Virus genome (UHGV): UHGV-1378817
DNA: 64,000 nt
Origin: a virus
Strand: one strand, 5' to 3'
The notes under the pieces were generated by a model. It was not told the origin of the DNA. It saw only the letters and a program-made list of their open reading frames with translations, and ran no database searches. Both the position numbers and the translations under genes were made by a program. Numbering within the stretch: position 1 is the first letter of the stretch; the number at the start of each line of letters is the position of its first letter. Shown one piece after another: positions 2,518-47,762 of this stretch.

Positions 2518-2594
2518 TGGTCTCCACGGAGTGATTCGAACACTCGACCTCCTGATCCCAAATCAGGCGCTCTACCAAGCTGAGCTACGCGGAG
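2518..2594 (-). tRNA. tRNA-Pro (anticodon UGG)
   Basis: Minus-strand cloverleaf: 7-bp acceptor stem, anticodon stem CCUGA/UCAGG with loop UUUGGGA, T-loop GTTCGAATC, encoded CCA. Confidence 0.7.
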
Positions 2595-2605
2595 TATTTA
2601 TTATT

Positions 2606-2680
2606 TGGTGGCCCTGGGTGGAATTGAACCACCGTCTGGCGATTATGAGTCGCTTGCTTGAACCTTCCAGCTACAGGGCC
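2606..2680 (-). tRNA. tRNA-Met (anticodon CAU; could be a lysidine-modified Ile tRNA)
   Basis: Acceptor stem GGCCCUG/CAGGGCC, anticodon loop CUCAUAA, T-loop GGTTCAATTCC, encoded CCA. Confidence 0.6.
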
Positions 2681-2681
2681 A

Positions 2682-2757
2682 TGGTGCTGATAGCAGGACT
2701 CGAACCTGCAACCTATTGATTACAAATCAATTGCACTACCAATTGTGCTACATCAGC
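2682..2757 (-). tRNA. tRNA-Thr (anticodon UGU)
   Basis: Acceptor GCUGAUG/CAUCAGC, anticodon stem AUUGA/UCAAU with loop UUUGUAA, T-loop GGTTCGAGTCC, encoded CCA. Confidence 0.65.
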
Positions 2758-2762
2758 AAAAA

Positions 2763-2861
2763 GGTGCTAGGTGATGGAATCGAACCACCTATGTATTCAA
2801 CGACTACCTCGTCTATTTTCAGGATTAAAAATCCTCGCCCTTGCCAAAGGGCTTACCTAGC
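2763..2861 (-). tRNA. type II (long variable arm) tRNA-like gene, anticodon ambiguous
   Basis: Good acceptor stem (GCUAGGU/ACCUAGC), D-arm and T-arm (GGTTCGATTCC) plus a long variable arm, but the anticodon arm only forms a 4-bp stem with loop UUUUUAA; no encoded terminal A. Confidence 0.4.
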
Positions 2862-2959
2862 TCAGTATGTTGACCATGTTGCTAGTCGGCGATGACGACT
2901 GTAACATTTGATAATCCGGTTCTGCTTCCGGCTTTCGCTTAATTACAAGGTCAACAATA

Positions 2960-3049
2960 TGGCTGAGGGTAATGGAATCGAACCATCATCGAGTCATCCT
3001 CAACGGGACGGTTTTCAAGACCGCTTGAGCACCATTGCTCCCTACCCTC
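2960..3049 (-). tRNA. tRNA-Ser (anticodon UGA)
   Basis: Acceptor GAGGGUA/UACCCUC, anticodon loop CUUGAAA, long variable arm, T-loop GGTTCGATTCC, encoded CCA. Confidence 0.6.
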
Positions 3050-3164
3050 ATTTATAAACAATACTGATAATGACACTGATTTTCGAGCAGTTAGTGACTA
3101 GTATAAACGACGATAAATATCAATGCCATTATCTGTATGATTTATGCATTTAAAACTATAAATT

Positions 3165-3251
3165 TGGTGGGGAGTGGTGGAGTCGAACCACCCGAGTCGC
3201 AATGACAATAGATTTACAGTCTACACCGCTACCTCTACGGGATAACTCCCC
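3165..3251 (-). tRNA. tRNA-Tyr (anticodon GUA)
   Basis: Acceptor GGGGAGU/ACUCCCC, anticodon loop CUGUAAA, long variable arm, T-loop GGTTCGACTCC, encoded CCA. Confidence 0.6.
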
Positions 3252-3255
3252 AATT

Positions 3256-3330
3256 TGGCACCCCGTACTGGACTCGAACCAGTGTCAACGGCTTAGAAGG
3301 CCGCTGCTTTATCCACTAAGCTAACAGGGC
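3256..3330 (-). tRNA. tRNA-Arg (anticodon UCU)
   Basis: Acceptor stem with G-U wobbles, anticodon loop CUUCUAA, T-loop GGTTCGAGTCC, encoded CCA. Confidence 0.65.
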
Positions 3331-3426
3331 ACTGGGTGGCTTTCTTTTACACCTTAGCCGCCAGAAAAGGTGGGAGACCATGTTTACAATATTACACTGT
3401 TAAGCAAAGTTTGTCAAGAAAATATT

Positions 3427-3765
3427 TTAGCTATTGCCAACAGGTTGTATTTCTGTGGTAAATGGCATAAAAGGTGCTGGTTTTTCAGCCTCTTCTACTA
3501 CCACCTCTTCCTCTTCACCAAACATCTCATCATATTCTTCCTGCATTCGGTCTGCCTTATCAAGAACATACTCTGCAATGCTTTGACGAATATTTTGTTT
3601 GGTTTTCGGGTCCAACATCAGCTCTCTTAAAACTTTGTGAGCTTCTGGAACCATCGCTATAAAAGATTCCTTCATATCAAGGATGTTCTTCTCTAGCTGA
3701 ATGGCGTTGGACTCCTCTTTCAGAGGTCTGCCTCTACGGCGACGCTTTTTAGTTGTATCCGCCAT
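3427..3765 (-). CDS. hypothetical protein, basic N-terminus and acidic C-terminus
   Basis: ORF 3427-3918 trimmed to internal Met (MADTTKKRRRRGRP...); minus-strand TTGACA-17-TAAAAT promoter and GGAGGA RBS immediately upstream. Confidence 0.45.
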   Translation of the reverse strand: MADTTKKRRRRGRPLKEESNAIQLEKNILDMKESFIAMVPEAHKVLRELMLDPKTKQNIRQSIAEYVLDKADRMQEEYDEMFGEEEEVVVEEAEKPAPFMPFTTEIQPVGNS

Positions 3766-4113
3766 GTTTCCTCCATTATCACGTGATAGGTGGATTTTAT
3801 CATAGCAAATACTGATTGTCAAGTTCGCCGCAGGGTGGTATTCCCTGCGACTTGCCCAGCGTCCTGGACCAGCAAGACCCAACAAGTGGGTTTTCCAGCT
3901 ATACCCATTACCGCACACAGGCTCGACCTTATTACAGGTTGGCTGGGGTCACATCGTCATGTGCTGGCTGCCCCTACCATTTTAAGTGTGGTGCACTATC
4001 AAGCCCTCTAAGGGGAACTCAGCCTTCTCCGAACCCTGTTTCAAAGCATCCGGAGATAAAGCCATCAAATTCATCTTTAAATTGGATATTCATCATAATA
4101 CACGAAAACAACC

Positions 4114-4356
4114 TCATTGTAAAGCACAAATAAATAAAACATACTTAATTTGTTTGTTATCAGGCTCAGGGTAGAAGTAGAAGATCTTGCTATCACCGAT
4201 CTGAACACCACCATCCCAACAGCATAGCCCATAACCCGTATTCATACAAGCTAAGTCGTTGGCAAAATCTATTGCATCATCCAGTGCACGAAATTCACCT
4301 TCATCTTCTAAATAATCCTCATTCATGGAACGAAAAACGAGCTTAACCTTAAACAT
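4114..4356 (-). CDS. hypothetical protein
   Basis: 80-aa minus-strand ORF in a gene-dense minus block. Confidence 0.35.
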   Translation of the reverse strand: MFKVKLVFRSMNEDYLEDEGEFRALDDAIDFANDLACMNTGYGLCCWDGGVQIGDSKIFYFYPEPDNKQIKYVLFICALQ

Positions 4357-4432
4357 AGCATTACCTGTAGACCTCGTAAGTTAAAATTGTATCACATCAT
4401 ATTGCAGATCTTATCAGGTAACATTATTTTTG

Positions 4433-4642
4433 TCAACAGATTCCGGCCTTATCTCGCCTGTCTGCGTATTCTTTAATCGCAACCTCCTCGGCATGGGTGA
4501 CTAAATCTTCAAAGTAACTCTCAAGCTCCTCGTCAATGTCAGGAAACCAACTCTTTTTCCTGTCAGTGTGAATCGCAGACTTGTTGAATTTATTACAGTT
4601 CTTTGCTACCGGATTGTTCATTAATCGCCCCTCAGCGTTCAT
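4433..4642 (-). CDS. hypothetical protein
   Basis: 69-aa minus-strand ORF; start region overlaps the stop of ORF 4632-5210. Confidence 0.3.
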   Translation of the reverse strand: MNAEGRLMNNPVAKNCNKFNKSAIHTDRKKSWFPDIDEELESYFEDLVTHAEEVAIKEYADRRDKAGIC

Positions 4643-5210
4643 AGTAAATCTTATTTAACATTACCTCATCCTTTGCAGAGAGAATACCGAGATATGCATC
4701 ACCGAACCTACCTGCAACAACCTCTACATGATACATAACTTCGTTAATATCGTCAAGAGTGATAACTGGATGACCGTATCTCTCTGAGTATTGTCTCAGA
4801 GTGCGATGTAGGGAATCATCATCGTAGGCAGACTTTTTAATATCACAAACACGACGAATAGCCTTGATGTCGAAAAACCCTGTGCGATACCAACCAAGAA
4901 AAAGGTTTCGTACAGTGTCAACACCTACATCAACACCGTCAAGAACCTTATCTACAAGATAGCTGTCATCCTTTGGACCTGCTTCCTTAGTTCGAATGTA
5001 GTTGCCATCTTTTCCAGGTGACAGCTCCTTCTCATCACCAACCTGAATGCCATCATTTGGCGGTGTTAACCACTTATCCGGATGCTTACGATCACGAGCG
5101 TTAGAATGATTACGCTGGAAACCTGGCTTCCACTTGAAAGTTTTCTCCATCTGTTCTTCATTCTGATAACGTTTTGCAATCTTTTCACGGTCATCTTTGC
5201 GTGGACTCAT
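4632..5210 (-). CDS. hypothetical protein
   Basis: 192-aa minus-strand ORF; no motif I recognise. Confidence 0.45.
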   Translation of the reverse strand: MSPRKDDREKIAKRYQNEEQMEKTFKWKPGFQRNHSNARDRKHPDKWLTPPNDGIQVGDEKELSPGKDGNYIRTKEAGPKDDSYLVDKVLDGVDVGVDTVRNLFLGWYRTGFFDIKAIRRVCDIKKSAYDDDSLHRTLRQYSERYGHPVITLDDINEVMYHVEVVAGRFGDAYLGILSAKDEVMLNKIYYER

Positions 5211-5713
5211 AACTACCTCCTCTTCAAGTTATAGAAAAACTCACTGTATCGCTTTGTAACGAGCTTTTCTATCAAACTGGTGCGATTGCCTTACCTGGTA
5301 TAGTTTATATAGCTGTGGAGCGATTTAGGTGCCTTCTTGTCCGTTTCCACACATAAACTTCATCCAAGCTCGCGCGGGAGACTCTCAACCGACTCCTTAC
5401 GGCGCTGGCAAGCTTTCGTCGGTGGTCCACATCAGTGCTCGGCCTTTGGCCTGCGCTATCGCTTCGCTCCCACACATGTTAACAGACCTGCATGTATGCA
5501 CTTCTGTTATTGTGTGCACCAGGGAGGCCCGGCATCTCGCCCCTCGTAGGCGAGTGCCAATGAAGGGCCGACACTACCCATAGTAAGTAATAAATTTAAA
5601 ACATGGTACTTAGGATCTAGTATATTCTACATAAGTTAAGTATATGTACTTAGTACCATAAGTACTAGATCTTTTATTTTTTATTATTTAGTTATTTTAG
5701 TTATATTCTTTAT

Positions 5714-5795
5714 GTGTCCGTATCACGGACAGTTAGTGTCCGTATTACGGGCAGATGTGTCCGCGTGACGGACAGTAGTGTCCGTATCACGGACA
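5714..5795. repeat. four tandem copies of a 17-bp palindrome TGTCCGT-N3-ACGGACA (operator- or iteron-like array)
   Basis: Copies at about 5714, 5737, 5758 and 5779; two perfect (TGTCCGTATCACGGACA), two degenerate; spacing 21-23 bp. Confidence 0.6.
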
Positions 5796-5870
5796 GTTAC
5801 TAACCTCTGTTCCATAGCGAACATAAAACATACGAATCCTTATAGTACAGATATTTAAGTTTTTACTGGT

Positions 5871-6221
5871 CTAACCAGTTGTTGACATTCGAATAACCTC
5901 TTCTGGTGGCAAAACTTTGGAAAATGTGCATCTTTTACCTCTCCCTTGTGTGGATATTTCAACCACTCCTGCACATTCTAAAGTTTTAACGCACGCTGCT
6001 GCTTTTGTTTTCTTTATCCCAACATCTGCTGCAATTTTCCTTGTGCTGGGTGTGAAGCGTGAACTTCCTCCAAGCTTATACCAGTTGTGCAGGTAGCAGT
6101 ATACGATCTTGTCATACAAGTCAAGAACAACAACCTCCCCAGTTGTGTCATTCAAAACTTTTGACATAGACAGTATTTCAAGGGGGACTTTAAGATATAG
6201 CAGCTTATCCCCATCTTTCAT
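5871..6221 (-). CDS. putative helix-turn-helix DNA-binding protein
   Basis: 116-aa ORF; C-terminal segment TPSTRKIAADVGIKKTKAAACVKTLECAGVV looks like an HTH/winged-helix; sits next to the palindrome array. Confidence 0.35.
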   Translation of the reverse strand: MKDGDKLLYLKVPLEILSMSKVLNDTTGEVVVLDLYDKIVYCYLHNWYKLGGSSRFTPSTRKIAADVGIKKTKAAACVKTLECAGVVEISTQGRGKRCTFSKVLPPEEVIRMSTTG

Positions 6222-6268
6222 ATCTCCTGATTCTCCTTGTGTGGCAATTTTCTTTAAAATAGCAGGGA

Positions 6269-6823
6269 TTACTCCCCGCTGTCAATAGCAAGACTCATTG
6301 CAATACTGTATGCCTCTTCTAATGGTAAGAGTCTACCCCACACATCCCAACCGACATCAAACTGCCTGCCAAACAACTGTTGTGTGGTTCCGTGAGCATG
6401 ACCGAACAGTTGTACTGATCCGTGAGGCTTTCTGTTCCACTTTGCAAACTGGTAATGGCTCATACAGATCAAATTCTTGTTGTGGCGAAGCTCGTAATAA
6501 TCTACAACCTCATGATAGAACTCTTTCATAATTCTGACAGTCGTCCTTGTGTCATGGTTGCCACGAACAAGAATAATATGTCCGTTCAACATATTTAGAA
6601 TATCTGGAAGTAAGTTGTTGATATTTTTATCAGTAGTGCACGCAATATCTCCCAAGTGGAACACAGTGTCTGCAGGTGACACAACAGAGTTCCACTCGGC
6701 GATGATTCCCGCATTCATACTGTCAAGATTGTGATCATACTGAGATCTGTGTTTTTGACATGAATCAAACTCCATGACCCGCTGGTGGAGAAAGTGTGTG
6801 TCGCTTGTTACAAAGTATTTCAT
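6269..6823 (-). CDS. calcineurin-like metallophosphoesterase
   Basis: Motifs SDTHF (DxH), GDI, GNHD and GHAHG in canonical order; ORF 6269-6928 trimmed to Met MKYFVTSDTHF. Confidence 0.6.
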   Translation of the reverse strand: MKYFVTSDTHFLHQRVMEFDSCQKHRSQYDHNLDSMNAGIIAEWNSVVSPADTVFHLGDIACTTDKNINNLLPDILNMLNGHIILVRGNHDTRTTVRIMKEFYHEVVDYYELRHNKNLICMSHYQFAKWNRKPHGSVQLFGHAHGTTQQLFGRQFDVGWDVWGRLLPLEEAYSIAMSLAIDSGE

Positions 6824-6830
6824 ACATTCC

Positions 6831-7241
6831 TCATTTAAGTTTAATGCAGTTTTTAAGCTGGCGTTCCATACGATCCACAACCCTGTCTGGAACATCATGA
6901 ATGCTTTTATTACCGTGTCGGTTTTCAACCACGATTACGGTATAATTATACCCATGGCTGATTGCCATGTCAACATATTCTTGCACATGTTTTTCTTTTG
7001 TAAACGTATTACTTACCACGATACGGTCGTATCCCATACGCATCATATCTTCTACGTTATCTTTGCACCATTTTGCTGCAAGTGTTACTTTACTTGCATC
7101 CCAGTTGTAATTGCCGTCATCGTCGTACCAGAACATGTCGTTCTCAAAATGTGGATACAGACCTTCTAAAGATAGCGCATTTGCCAGTGTTGATTTGCCA
7201 GACCCTGGTAGACCACGCACGATATATAGCATTTTAGACAT
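6831..7241 (-). CDS. P-loop polynucleotide 5'-kinase-like protein
   Basis: MSKMLYIVRGLPGSGKSTLANAL Walker A; overall pattern resembles the T4 Pnk kinase domain; GGAGGA RBS upstream of ATG at 7241. Confidence 0.55.
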   Translation of the reverse strand: MSKMLYIVRGLPGSGKSTLANALSLEGLYPHFENDMFWYDDDGNYNWDASKVTLAAKWCKDNVEDMMRMGYDRIVVSNTFTKEKHVQEYVDMAISHGYNYTVIVVENRHGNKSIHDVPDRVVDRMERQLKNCIKLK

Positions 7242-7341
7242 AGTAATCCTCCGTTTTAATTTCAAAGATAGTATACCTAACTGTTTTGTTAATTTCAAGT
7301 GTTGACACTAGGTTATTTGTGTGGCAGGATAGACTGACAAA

Positions 7342-8277
7342 ATGACAAATGAGGAACGTATGATGAAGTATTTTAATGCAGACGACCTAGTTGACAAAGG
7401 TCTTGTAACCAGTAGATATTACCCAGATCTTGGGTTAAAGATCTATAAATACGCCAGAAAAGTATTTTACAACAATTTATGGCATTTGTCCCCTCGTTTA
7501 CTGGAGTGCCGAGGCATTGTTGTCGGTAATGAAGGAAATGTTGTGGCATGGCCCTTCACAAAAGTGTTTAACTTGGGAGAAAACTCCACCAACCTGCCTG
7601 ACAATAAGCTTGTGACGGCGGTAGAGAAAAAGAACGGATTCCTTGGTGTGGTATCATCTCATAAAGGTGAACTATTGTTCTCAACAACCGGATCTCTTGA
7701 TTCTCCATATTGTAACCTTGCAAAGGAAACCATCCAGGAGCAATGCGGTAATTTAGATCTTATCAAGAAGGTTATGGGCAATGAAAACATGACATTCATG
7801 TTTGAAATTTGTCACCCTTCAGATCCGCATATTGTTCAGGAAGATCATGGCGCATATTTGATAGGTTGCAGGTATAATGATTCTGGAATAATGCTACCAG
7901 AGGCAGCTTTAGATGGGATTGCCAAATACCTTGGTGCAAAACGTCCTCACACTGTGCGTGAAATTCCGTTCAGCTATGCAAAAGAATTGGCTGCAGAAAC
8001 AAGAGGTGAAGGGTATATGATTCGTAAGCCTTACTATCCTTATGATCTGCAGCTGAAGATCAAGTCTCCATACTATCTGGCACGGAAGGCCGTAATGAGG
8101 GGTAAAGCTTGGAAGATTTGGGATGATGATATCTTTAAACGTGTTGACGAAGAGTTTTACGGCATGGTAAACTTCATTCGCAACAACTACACAGAGGATG
8201 TATGGAACTGCCTCCTGGAGCAGGAACGCCGTGAGATACTTGACTACTATTTCCACAACGAGGACTATATGCAATGA
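7342..8277 (+). CDS. RNA ligase (T4 Rnl1-like)
   Basis: LLECRGIVV, PFTKVFNLGEN and nucleotidyltransferase motif I lysine in VEKKNGFLGVV parallel T4 RnlA (ECRGIMF, PMEKFFNLNEN, LTKEDGSLV). True start may be ATG at 7360 (better RBS). Confidence 0.55.
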   Translation: MTNEERMMKYFNADDLVDKGLVTSRYYPDLGLKIYKYARKVFYNNLWHLSPRLLECRGIVVGNEGNVVAWPFTKVFNLGENSTNLPDNKLVTAVEKKNGFLGVVSSHKGELLFSTTGSLDSPYCNLAKETIQEQCGNLDLIKKVMGNENMTFMFEICHPSDPHIVQEDHGAYLIGCRYNDSGIMLPEAALDGIAKYLGAKRPHTVREIPFSYAKELAAETRGEGYMIRKPYYPYDLQLKIKSPYYLARKAVMRGKAWKIWDDDIFKRVDEEFYGMVNFIRNNYTEDVWNCLLEQERREILDYYFHNEDYMQ

Positions 8278-44143: not shown

Positions 44144-44298
44144 CAAAATATCAAATTTAAGACACCTAGGACGCTCTGTGGCGTCCTTTTCTTTATCTGG
44201 TGCACGATTGCATACCTTGGACAGGTAATCTCATTATAGAGCGCTTTAGAAAGAATTTGACTGTTTTCCTAAACCACCAACATCTTGAGGTATCATTT

Positions 44299-44520
44299 AT
44301 GAAAATTGTTCTATACGACGATAACGATATTGCTCTCAGTACTGTATATTTTGAAGATGATGATCTGCCAGATTTTCTACGTGTCTCCACATTTGCTGCA
44401 GAATACGGTGTGAGCCGTCAGGCAATGCATAAGTACCGAGAGTATCAGAATTGCTCATGGGCTGAGACCTTTATGCACTTTATCCAACGTAAGCAGGCTC
44501 TGGACCGCAAAAAGCTTTAA
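44299..44520 (+). CDS. small putative DNA-binding protein
   Basis: ORF 44200-44520 trimmed to Met MKIVLYDDND; FAAEYGVSRQAMHKY looks HTH-like. Confidence 0.35.
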   Translation: MKIVLYDDNDIALSTVYFEDDDLPDFLRVSTFAAEYGVSRQAMHKYREYQNCSWAETFMHFIQRKQALDRKKL

Positions 44521-45317: not shown

Positions 45318-45446
45318 CACACAATTAGCTGCCCGGCTAAAGTGCTGGAAGCGCACCTATAACACATCTTTCAACTAAATTTCCTACCACCACAATCACT
45401 TACCTCCAACACATGACTGTTTGCTTGTTTAGTGAGCAGTCATGCC

Positions 45447-45474
45447 TTGACATTCTTGCCTATCCTGATAAAAT
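45447..45474 (+). promoter_or_regulatory. sigma70-like promoter reading into a GC-rich non-coding segment
   Basis: TTGACA-16 nt-TAAAAT with no ORF downstream; followed by about 270 nt of unusually GC-rich sequence ending in a G-run and T-rich stretch near 45730-45760. Confidence 0.4.
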
Positions 45475-47725
45475 TAAGTTCTTCTCTTTTCTTTTACCGA
45501 GTAATTCGGGTTTTCTGTTCTCTTCGGTTTGAAGGGGTATGGAGATACACCTGAGTGAACAGGGTGAACAACCGAACCATTGGCTATGGCATTAGCATGG
45601 CGAAGCGGACGGGTGACGAAAGAGGGGCCGGAGGACACCAGTCACTGCCATATGATATATGGGTGATAACCTGAAGAGTCTGAATAAGTGTTTAAGTACC
45701 AGTCAGAGGAAAAGGTGAATGGTAGCCGAAGGGGGAGGGGGGTTTCTTGTATCTTTAATTTGTATATTATGTATACACTTGTAAACCAATATCATCTAGA
45801 TCTGTTTACCACACAAAGTGGATAGAGACAAATATTACCTATTAAACTTGAATTATTTATAGAAAATACCACAACACCACTTAAGTCTTTGATTTTACAC
45901 ACAAATCTTACAGATATTCAACCTCCATATTTAACATACCTGTAACATATTCCATACTCTACCTGCCTGATCAATTTCCCCAACTACATCCCTCATATTT
46001 CCCCTGTCTGTACTACCCTGCCCCACCGGGAGTCCCGTCATATCTGGCTTTCCAGCAAATATCACACCCACAAATATCATGCCTGAAGAGGGTTTCATCC
46101 CATAATACCTGCCTTGCCTGAAGAGCGCTTCATACACCACGTAAATTTTTTAATTGACCTCCCCTGCCCCGCCGGAGAGGTTGGCTTTTCCCACACAGAC
46201 CTGAAGAGTCAGCCAGAAATATCTGAATAGGCCCAGTTCTACCACGATTTTGACCTGACCTACAGGAGCGCTGCCAGGCGGACGAAATGGGAATACTTCT
46301 CATTCTTATAACAATTCTCAAATATCGAGGCAGTGAGGCAAATTAATAGGCCAGGCCGTTCACACAGTGGCACAACATTTGCAACCTATCTTGTGGGGGT
46401 GAATGAGAATACCTATCATTGTGAGAACCATTATCATTACGGGCAATTTAACATAATACCCATTATGCGCACCACTGGTGATACATACAGGGATTGATAA
46501 CACGAGTTACAGTTTACGCATATAACAATCATATTTCTTACTATTTGTGTGGGATATAGTTAGCAGCCGATAGATTAGATATTGACCTGTGGACTTCCAA
46601 CCGTCTAGACGTCTAAGCGCCCACACAACAAGGCTTATACATACATTACTGAATGTAAACAGGGCCGCAAAAATGCTACCATACCAGTTTGTAAATTTTC
46701 ATGCAGCACTTGACAAAGAGGAGGAAAACTTGTCTGACACAATGTCACACAATATGACACAATAACGGCTGTTACCATTCCATATCTCACTGTTTACGCA
46801 TAGACTGTTTACGCCTGGATAGTTTACACCTTGACAGTTTACACAGATATGATAAGCCATGACATTCGTTTGCATGAAAACAATTAGCAAGTTAACAATT
46901 AACAAGTTAATAATATATGACATAATATAAAAGCAGGGCAACTATTAGAAGATCTATAGTTGCCTTGCTTGTTATGTCATGATTAACTAAATACAAGGCA
47001 ACTATGATCTGATTAATAGTTTGCAGACAAACTATCACGGGGGTGATGGTTACTGCTTTTATATTATGTCGCGACTCCGTCGCGCCATGCCATTCGTTTG
47101 CATAGTTGCCTTATTGTTACAGATAAAATAATTGTATTGTTAATTATTTCTTATCTTTCTATTAGTCATCTAATGATTCCGGTTAGTATAGTAACGTACA
47201 GTAAACATTAGACGACTAAATATTTCTATGTTTATGATAACCTATCGTGACAATTCCGGACTGTTTACGAAAAATGTTGACACCTGAGCTGATTTATGTT
47301 ATGCAATTTAAACGAATAATTATTTTATGCAGGTATTGACTATTCCGTTATTCTATGGTTGGAATAAATACTTAGCAAGCTATAGAATGGTGAGCGTACG
47401 TAAATTCTGAGATTTGTCGGCTATAGTTATACTCGATTTTTCACGTAGAACACGCTTTTTGGTTTGTGTAAGTGTATGACTTATAAAGATTTTTAGTTGT
47501 TGACAAGATATTGAAGATGTGCATCAGGTTAAATTTTGTGCAATAGCTGCATTACGTGCAATTTTGGAAGGAAAACTGGTAAAAATAGCACCGATACCAC
47601 ACAATGAAAGGTTATGCAATAGCTATTTTATATGTATATTTGTACAGTGTGCAGGATTGATGGCTCGTCAATTATTCCACTTGCCAGGTAGGGCCGTTTA
47701 TGGTAGGGGAAGAGCAGACAAAAAG

Positions 47726-47744
47726 AAAGGGGCCTAAGCCCCTT
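47726..47744 (-). terminator. rho-independent terminator (minus strand)
   Basis: On the minus strand AAGGGGC-ttag-GCCCCTT followed by TCTTTTT, immediately downstream of the stop of ORF 47763-48182. Confidence 0.5.
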
Positions 47745-47762
47745 GATAATTCAGTTAAAAAA

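Follow-up and report, generated by a model that had tools for sequence, protein, structure and literature searches.

The stretch analysed here, 64,000 nucleotides (nt) of virus genome UHGV-1378817 and referred to throughout as the window, is, judged from its sequence, part of a Vequintavirus (rV5-like) E. coli phage genome. Across positions 3400-7000 it is 97-98.7% identical to ~117 Vequintavirus genomes, including AlexBoehm, APECc02 and rV5. A preliminary description had singled out positions 5330-5583 as a GC-rich segment with only low-complexity open reading frames (ORFs), placed between the gene at 4632-5210 and an AT-rich palindromic region. The GC content of the segment is 57.1% against a window mean of 42.8% (standard deviation 0.036, z = 3.99), and the only 254-nt stretches in the 64 kilobases (kb) that reach 57.1% are those overlapping 5315-5584. 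The placing was confirmed, and the ORFs inside the segment are indeed short (84, 70, 56 and 40 amino acids, aa), begin with GTG or TTG, are rich in Arg, Ser and Pro, and matched nothing in Pfam or PHROG. The reported coordinates were broadly right, although the real unit is offset: it is an element of the minus strand that runs from ~5575 to ~5340, with a weaker tail to ~5320. Whatever its role, this element is very probably functional, non-coding and structured. A real protein, or an absence of conservation, had been named as evidence against a non-coding element; both were looked for and neither was found.

Fold and conservation of the minus-strand element

Comparative alignment, as had been proposed, showed that the element is conserved, including in a divergent relative, L004. 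It consists of hairpin modules separated by the conserved linkers UGUGUGGG, AUGUGGA and GAGUCUCCCGCGCG. Its parts are as follows.

5340..5575, minus strand: whole structured element, ~235 nt, read from 5575 to 5340; homology to L004 starts at 5572
5526..5569, minus strand: hairpin P1, 16 pairs, with a GGCCC/GGGCC base, a 6-nt internal loop, GGCA/UGCC, a bulged A, CUCGCCU/GGGCGAG and a 5-nt loop
5471..5516, minus strand: hairpin P2, of variable length, with a CACACA/UGUGUG base, AACAGA/UCUGUU and a UGCA/UGCA tip (minimum-free-energy fold)
5433..5470, minus strand: module B, the small hairpins GCG-AUAG-CGC and GGCC-AAA-GGCC, flanked by the linkers UGUGUGGG and AUGUGGA
5388..5423, minus strand: core stem-loop, ACCGAC/GUCGGU closing a 24-nt invariant loop, GAAAGCUUGCCAGCGCCGKAAGGA
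5369..5386, minus strand: conserved strand on the 3' side, GAGAGUCUCCCGCGCGAG, able to pair with GUGUGGGAG (5467-5475) in a tentative long-range closing helix
5368..5478, minus strand: match of covariance model R1 (core and module B), 131.8 bits, E = 6e-31, the only one in the window

The helices are supported by how their strands vary among phages, L004 and a set of E. coli satellite replicons described below. The 16 pairs of P1 were 100% paired in eight distinct sequences, compared with 34-51% when partners were slid; satellite L020 turns two of its G-C pairs into U-A by changes on both sides, and phage substitutions all lie in loops. An 18-nt deletion in rV5, Murica and A147 takes the tip of P2 and the CACACAUG/CAUGUGUG base remains, while the middle helix changes in L004 from ACAGA/UCUGU to ACAGC/GCUGU (A-U to C-G). 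In the core alignment (A3, 17 sequences), 24 pairs were 97.3% paired versus 33-45% with slid partners, eight pairs had changed on both sides, and none of 500 shuffles reached the observed values. Four of the six core-stem pairs show such two-sided changes, and the tetraloop within the core loop alternates between GUAA and GGAA. The closing helix (helix 1) was 96% paired, with U.G wobbles, and its GAGAGUCUCCCGCGCGAG strand is conserved in the phages and most satellites. Because the U.G wobbles are found only in the minus-strand reading, we take the minus strand to be the one that folds. Its loops are of types typical of RNA: GUAA/GGAA, GAAA and, in several satellite modules, cUUCGg. A long-range GGAGCGA/UCGCUCC stem, suggested by single-sequence folding, was rejected as absent from L004.

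Every Vequintavirus record carries the element (119 of 119 hits, 89-99.7% identity), and sensitive blastn of 50,697 phage records found no homologue beyond this genus. A metagenome scan returned three ordinary vequintavirus-like contigs, a second copy of the divergent contig (L017) and one chance match in a high-GC coding region. That divergent contig, L004 (137 kb), was the one recovered from IMG/VR, and its flanking protein is 83% identical. Homology between the window and L004 starts exactly at 5572; upstream of this point L004 has another helix-turn-helix gene, other repeats and an unrelated A-rich stretch. By segment, identity to L004 is 92% for P1, 72% for P2 (the least conserved part), 92% for module B, 92% for the core, 73% for the 3' tail and 57% for the next 46 nt. 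P1, module B and the core together are identical at 142 of 154 positions, compared with 38 of 60 (63%) at 4-fold sites of the 192-aa gene at 4632-5210. Therefore, these well-conserved parts have been under purifying selection of about the strength seen at first and second codon positions.

These values bear on whether the segment is a non-functional GC-rich remnant, for instance a scar left by recombination of a cassette. Such a scar would agree with the recombination junction at this place and with the shuffling of modules among satellites. However, a scar does not account for 92% identity against 63% at neutral sites, for compensatory changes, or for the retention of one copy in each of 16 satellite replicons and in ~120 phage genomes. 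We consider a remnant the least credible of the explanations raised here.

A coding explanation was also considered. In rV5, ECML-10 and the BASEL phages a small protein of 56 aa, rV5 ORF78, is annotated here on the minus strand (5475 to 5305); its frame is open in 12 of 12 vequintaviruses examined, and the rV5 and Murica indels are multiples of three. Yet the frame has an internal stop in L004, its GTG start lies within the UGUGUGGG linker with no obvious ribosome-binding site, its replacements are radical (V/G, L/S, D/V, R/L, P/L/S/H), and it matches nothing in Pfam or PHROG. P1, which lies upstream of the ORF, is equally conserved, and the two core-stem strands change in pairs between phage and satellites (HRR to RCR, SRL to RQQ), as a helix predicts. 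A gene at this position is thus highly improbable. Other frames were rejected by plus-strand stops in many phages and a 1-nt insertion in ECML-10.

The Rfam scan that had been proposed was negative. Apart from tRNAs, no Rfam 15 family reached its gathering threshold in the window (4227 models, including C4/CI antisense RNA, GOLLD, ROOL, ribozymes, 6S, tmRNA and RNase P). A permissive scan of 3600-5900 gave chance-level scores only (rli43, 23.9 bits against a gathering threshold of 100), and three satellites scanned at E <= 0.1 gave nothing. Likewise, literature on rV5/Vequintavirus and on phage RNAs yielded no published description of the element or of the satellites. The element would therefore appear to be a new family of a known kind of element, belonging to no named family. 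Matches in Collinsella and other metagenome-assembled genomes were set aside; they comprised a 21-nt seed only and had covariance-model scores at chance level.

Several smaller observations concern the element's sequence and its relatives. The conserved linkers coincide with T7-type primase recognition pentamers (GTGTC, GGGTC, TGGTC), and GCGAAGC is known as a stable DNA mini-hairpin; motifs this short arise readily by chance, and we gave them no weight. The heptamer TGTGTGG occurs 25 times in the whole window versus 8.7 expected (0 of 100 shuffles), with two copies inside the element and six on the minus strand between 44650 and 47603. Eighteen MG0656xx records carry the label 'Campylobacter phage' (UNVERIFIED), but their sequence in this region shares ~97% identity with E. 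coli vequintaviruses, which makes the host label doubtful. The companion GC-rich, ORF-free segment at 3766-4113 was ruled out as a paralogue, since model R1 finds a single copy in the window. That segment is ~91% identical in L004, within a 2.1-kb block; it has minus-strand promoter-like sites on its flanks (4123-4095 and 3822-3794), a fold z-score of just -1.26, and no match in the satellites.

The origin-like surroundings of the element

The genes around the GC-rich gap all lie on the minus strand. In the direction of reading, the locus and its surroundings comprise the following features.

6823-6269, minus strand: metallophosphoesterase gene, first in the high-to-low coordinate order of the locus
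5871..6221, minus strand: gene for a 116-aa winged-helix protein, an initiator or regulator candidate; phrog_12838 'replication initiation protein', E = 8.5e-80
5714..5799, no strand assigned: four repeats of 21-22 base pairs (bp), each with the 17-bp dyad TGTCCGTATCACGGACA; candidate iteron or operator array
5584..5700, no strand assigned: AT-rich imperfect palindrome of ~100 bp, inverted repeats I2 and I7-I11; candidate DNA-unwinding region
4632-5210, minus strand: 192-aa gene, phrog_12226, function not assigned, downstream of the GC-rich gap
2518-3330, strand not stated: cluster of seven tRNA genes, from tRNA calls in the window

The hallmarks of an iteron-type origin are three or more repeated sites for initiator binding, set at helical spacing, with an AT-rich region and a gene for the initiator beside them; sequence features of each sort are present at this locus. 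The four repeats follow one another at 21-22 bp and lie 140 nt from the element. The 116-aa protein has weaker matches to other initiator PHROGs, to HTH_36 and to DUF6945. The AT-rich palindrome has a mean pairwise identity of 99% in 12 vequintaviruses, above most of the element, and is replaced by unrelated sequence in L004. The cumulative GC-skew minimum falls at ~7100-7300, ~1.5 kb from the element. The rV5 genome paper mentions just a 'non-coding' box and skew changes linked to transcription direction (PMC3606486).

The preliminary description had suggested that the segment may belong to the same cis-acting unit as the palindrome and repeat array. By position this stands: in three independent contexts (the phage, L004 and the satellites) the element lies on the same strand, downstream of an array of dyad-symmetric repeats and an AT-rich stretch, and together with the winged-helix initiator-like protein, the four repeats and the AT-rich palindrome it is a positional unit, as far as gene order tells. 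The parts are separable, though, as the array has been swapped in L004.

Two further observations concern the flanking genes. Homologue searches found no relative of the 192-aa protein outside Vequintavirus, to which it is restricted. Just upstream of the ribosome-binding site of its gene is a 12-bp inverted repeat, AUAGAAAAGCUC ... GAGUUUUUCUAU, with an 18-nt loop (5231-5272, minus strand). The repeat is invariant in all of the phages and in the divergent L004, and for this reason we consider it a candidate operator or translational control hairpin. Within the tRNA cluster, a tRNA-like gene of 97-99 nt (2763-2861, minus strand) is given a 4-base anticodon by ARAGORN and 35.5 bits by Rfam; other records annotate it as tRNA-Lys or 'OTHER', and it may hold an intron or be frameshift-suppressor-like.

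Copies of the element in plasmid-like replicons

When complete E. coli genomes and plasmids were searched sensitively, the element had no match on a chromosome; all matches were on plasmids. The first were partial (85%) and came from small circular 'plasmids' (13.2-13.7 kb) and from a trimer of the same unit that measures 39.6 kb. These are members of one family, whose circular replicons from E. coli measure 13.2-14.3 kb (loci L020, L021 and L031-L044; NZ_CP020521.1, NZ_CP043822.1, NZ_CP178698.1, NZ_CP035869.1, CP148565.1, CP134895.1 and assembly contigs). Sixteen replicons were compared, 15 of 13-14 kb and the 39.6-kb trimer; ten loci fetched later represent nine distinct genomes. Each encodes a major capsid protein, distal-tail-like and Neck1/tail-completion-like proteins, a 700-aa tape measure, two helix-turn-helix proteins and a winged-helix initiator-like protein. 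The last matches 'replication initiation' PHROGs and, weakly, a lambda O-like PHROG. The longest-covering matches of the tape measure (up to 77% of the query) are vequintavirus tape measures, which are distant (~25% identity). No terminase, portal or replication enzyme is annotated among the satellite genes. The replicons resemble phage satellites of a plasmid-like kind, with a link to rV5-like phages. At an identity of at least 82%, capsid homologues formed 18 clusters, the largest with 441 member sequences; those named were all from E. coli, on contigs typically of 13.4-14.3 kb. Searches of IMG/VR by DNA pattern or capsid protein found no satellites.

In every one of the 16 satellite replicons, covariance model R1 detects exactly one copy of the element for each monomer. 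The copy invariably shares the strand of the initiator operon and lies downstream of the repeat array that the replicon itself carries. Each replicon has ~2.3-2.9 kb of non-coding sequence, and the only repeat-bearing non-coding region is that of the element. The order repeats, AT-rich stretch, element, on one strand, is thus shared by the phage, L004 and 16 satellites, with ~five repeat types.

Within this fixed order the modules are exchanged. Type-A satellites keep the 24-nt phage loop on a GCUGCC/GGCAGC stem that replaces ACCGAC/GUCGGU; type-B satellites differ in the stem (GUCCGGAU/AUCCGGAC), in the loop and in the module-B hairpin. Three different stems therefore occupy one position, and types A and B lie between the same linkers: UGUGUGGG, AAUGUGGA and (G)GAGUCUCCCGCGCG. 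The satellite module-B hairpins, GGC-GA-AUGC-GUCA-GCAU-GAG-GCC or AGC-GUA-GUGC-GAA-GCAC-GUA-GCU, are likewise set between the linkers seen in the phage. P1 is confined to the phage and satellites L020 and L038, in each just after an AT-rich palindromic stretch. Between copies of UGUGUGGG there are extra modules, each of three short hairpins, one of them inverted in L034. Repeat type and core type assort independently (L031 versus L035, L042 and L043; L033 versus L036 and L037). Since core types, repeat types and modules are all exchanged among satellites, the element is a mosaic of exchangeable folded modules and conserved linkers. It appears to be independent of initiator specificity, yet always adjoins a putative initiator-binding array.

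Sharing between phage and satellite raised the question of a packaging (pac) site, in which the common core and P1 would be the helper's signal, kept by a satellite that has no terminase of its own. Vequintaviruses are circularly permuted and package by headful, as determined with PhageTerm (PMC8407724; PMC13211470). No terminase is annotated in the satellites, and the element, at 84-87% nucleotide identity between phage and satellite, is among the few sequences they share; the tape measures are only ~25% identical. However, compensatory changes, wobbles restricted to one strand and RNA-type tetraloops are not expected of a duplex bound by a small terminase subunit, type-B satellites replace the core stem and loop entirely, and P1 is absent from most satellites. 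A pac site is therefore improbable.

Two shared sequences elsewhere in the window were observed. The ORF at 44200-44520 (plus strand, 106 aa from a GTG) is 72% identical in nucleotides and ~67% in amino acids to an 83-aa gene that follows the capsid gene in every satellite. Neither Pfam nor PHROG gives the ORF a function. No other protein-coding similarity links window and satellites, and its product could partner the shared element. All satellites checked also have, at 96% identity, the 24-nt string of positions 46303-46326. In the satellites themselves, a conserved C-run/G-run hairpin followed by a G-run cluster (GGGGGAAUGGGGAGGG...GUGGGGAAGG) lies between array and element (L031 4725-4747, with equivalents in all satellites); this cluster has G-quadruplex or R-loop-forming potential and no phage counterpart.

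Transcription context and possible roles

Between a promoter at 6285-6256 and the gene at 4632-5210 we found no further sigma-70-like promoter and no intrinsic terminator, and the phage has no promoter-like site immediately before the element. Neither strand of 3300-7500 has a terminator-like site (a GC-rich hairpin followed by a U run), so the element is not itself an intrinsic terminator. From the lack of promoter and terminator signals after 6285-6256 we infer read-through, which would place the element on a polycistronic minus-strand transcript. The element is thus likely to be carried as RNA in the phage, and most likely forms part of a minus-strand early transcript that also covers the winged-helix and 192-aa genes.

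Such a transcript is compatible with a regulatory or effector RNA that has no role in replication and is processed from the early polycistronic message. It could act in cis, on mRNA processing or stability or in control of the 192-aa gene, or in trans, as an immunity or decoy RNA like the P4 CI RNA. Strand-specific helices, GNRA and UUCG loops and purifying selection fit this equally well; the phage element is intergenic in a co-directional operon without a terminator; it is separable from the repeat array; and repeat and core types assort independently. The UGUGUGGG and CCCACA motifs are complementary and recurrent, a recurrence resembling that of the repeated target and effector sequences of P4 immunity. 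Against this, no Rfam family matched, including the C4/CI antisense RNAs, no promoter or terminator delimits a discrete RNA, and no base-pairing target was identified. Nor would such an RNA explain why the element is strictly downstream of arrays in every lineage. On balance, a regulatory RNA of this kind is somewhat unlikely.

The reading that we tentatively favor, short of an even chance, is that the folded strand acts together with the origin-like module, as a structured RNA or as the equivalent single-stranded DNA; its part there might be to prime synthesis or to recruit the replisome. The initiator would bind the repeats and the AT-rich region would open. The folded strand just downstream, as a transcript (a primer or R-loop) or as exposed single-stranded DNA, could then provide a site for the priming of DNA synthesis or for recruitment of the replisome. 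Satellites, with their own initiator and repeats and the same core, might rely on downstream machinery in common with the phage, possibly supplied by an rV5-like helper. More speculatively, and with odds clearly on the other side, the element could be a 'hijack handle': a folded RNA or single-strand module recognised by the rV5-like replication (or packaging) machinery and kept by the satellites for their replication or mobilisation. It would then constitute a structured-nucleic-acid interface between a virulent coliphage and its satellite.

Several observations weigh against a role at an origin, or weaken the structural evidence on which it draws. The covariation comes from a small number of independent lineages, namely phages closely related to one another, a single outgroup and two core types from satellites, and the structure that was tested was derived from the same alignment as the test. 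The register of the closing helix is inconsistent in some type-B satellites, and uncompensated changes break small hairpins in YP-6, in EduardKellenberger and, through a 3-nt deletion, in Murica. The 'replication initiation' label of phrog_12838 is annotation only. Because the repeats are dyad-symmetric, they could be plain repressor operators rather than iterons. The GC-skew turn falls where transcription switches direction, according to the rV5 paper (PMC3606486). In satellite L031 the element has on one side a terminator that follows the preceding gene and on the other two strong promoter-like sites belonging to the initiator operon; the only promoter-like site upstream of the repeats is weak (9 of 12). 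Without a clear satellite promoter, either the RNA needs a promoter that we did not recognise or the element acts as DNA.

Comparison with known systems places the locus near several of them. Lambda-type and iteron-plasmid origins share a winged-helix initiator-like gene, four evenly spaced (21-22 bp) dyad repeats and an AT-rich stretch. The lambda ori is defined by four dyad-symmetric O-binding repeats and an AT-rich region, and no such folded element enters that definition; the phage locus, in contrast, has a ~235-nt GC-rich folded element past the AT-rich region that is kept through exchange of initiator and repeats. The ssi signals (ssiA and ssiB of IncQ RSF1010, G4-type primase sites such as the R1 G-site, and phiX174-type primosome assembly sites) lie near origins and are recognised by their fold, not by duplex sequence. 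Strand-specific hairpins near an origin-like module, with helices supported by compensatory changes, are present here too. The likeness extends to the closeness of the hairpins to repeats and an AT-rich region, and to the inverted hairpin module of satellite L034. The element differs in being larger, modular and furnished with RNA-type tetraloops (GNRA, UUCG).

Structured transcripts through or beside an origin are also a feature of the ColE1 RNA II pre-primer and the T4 oriF/oriG R-loop primers. The satellites' G-run clusters GGGGGAAUGGGGAGGG just upstream of the element recall R-loop-forming primers. Unlike RNA II and the T4 primers, the element has neither a defined promoter nor sequence similarity to them, and the phage copy has no G-run cluster.

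Among satellites, Vibrio PLE and its helper ICP1 offer a parallel, in that a satellite has its own initiator and repeats and is otherwise dependent, as the gene content of the E. coli replicons suggests for them. PLE differs in that the E. coli elements are free circular plasmids encoding capsid, distal-tail-like and tape-measure proteins, and we know of no description of a folded element shared between helper and satellite in that system. As a possible satellite-helper interface, the element recalls P4/P2. The P4 CI RNA and P1/P7 C4 are likewise small structured RNAs from a leader transcript with repeated complementary boxes; here, however, there is no Rfam C4 match, the architecture is different and the phage is virulent. 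GOLLD and ROOL resemble the element as multi-helix non-coding phage elements near a tRNA cluster (here 2518-3330), but the element is much smaller, has no Rfam match, and is confined to one phage genus and one satellite family.

rV5-like phages are widely used as candidates for biocontrol and therapy, and the element with its array is a concrete candidate for a site of their replication origin and early regulation. The replicons, of which public assemblies hold hundreds of copies, may constitute a new family of satellites that depend on a virulent myovirus; a folded element common to phage and satellite would give a specific point for studying helper exploitation. The element also adds a structured RNA-like family that Rfam does not include.

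A second non-coding region of the window has some of the same motifs. Positions 45370-47760, mostly on the minus strand, comprise ~2.4 kb without long ORFs and are probably the 'non-coding' box of the rV5 paper. Since model R1 matches the window only once, this region (45-47.7 kb) is not a member of the element's family. It could be another origin-like or regulatory region. Repeats of the GTAAAC and AAGGCAACTAT types occur there together with recurring CUCUUCAGG and UGUGUGGG motifs, and a terminator-like hairpin lies at ~47715-47745. At ~46535-46555 it contains CCCACACAAAUAGUAAG, which also precedes P1 in satellite L020.

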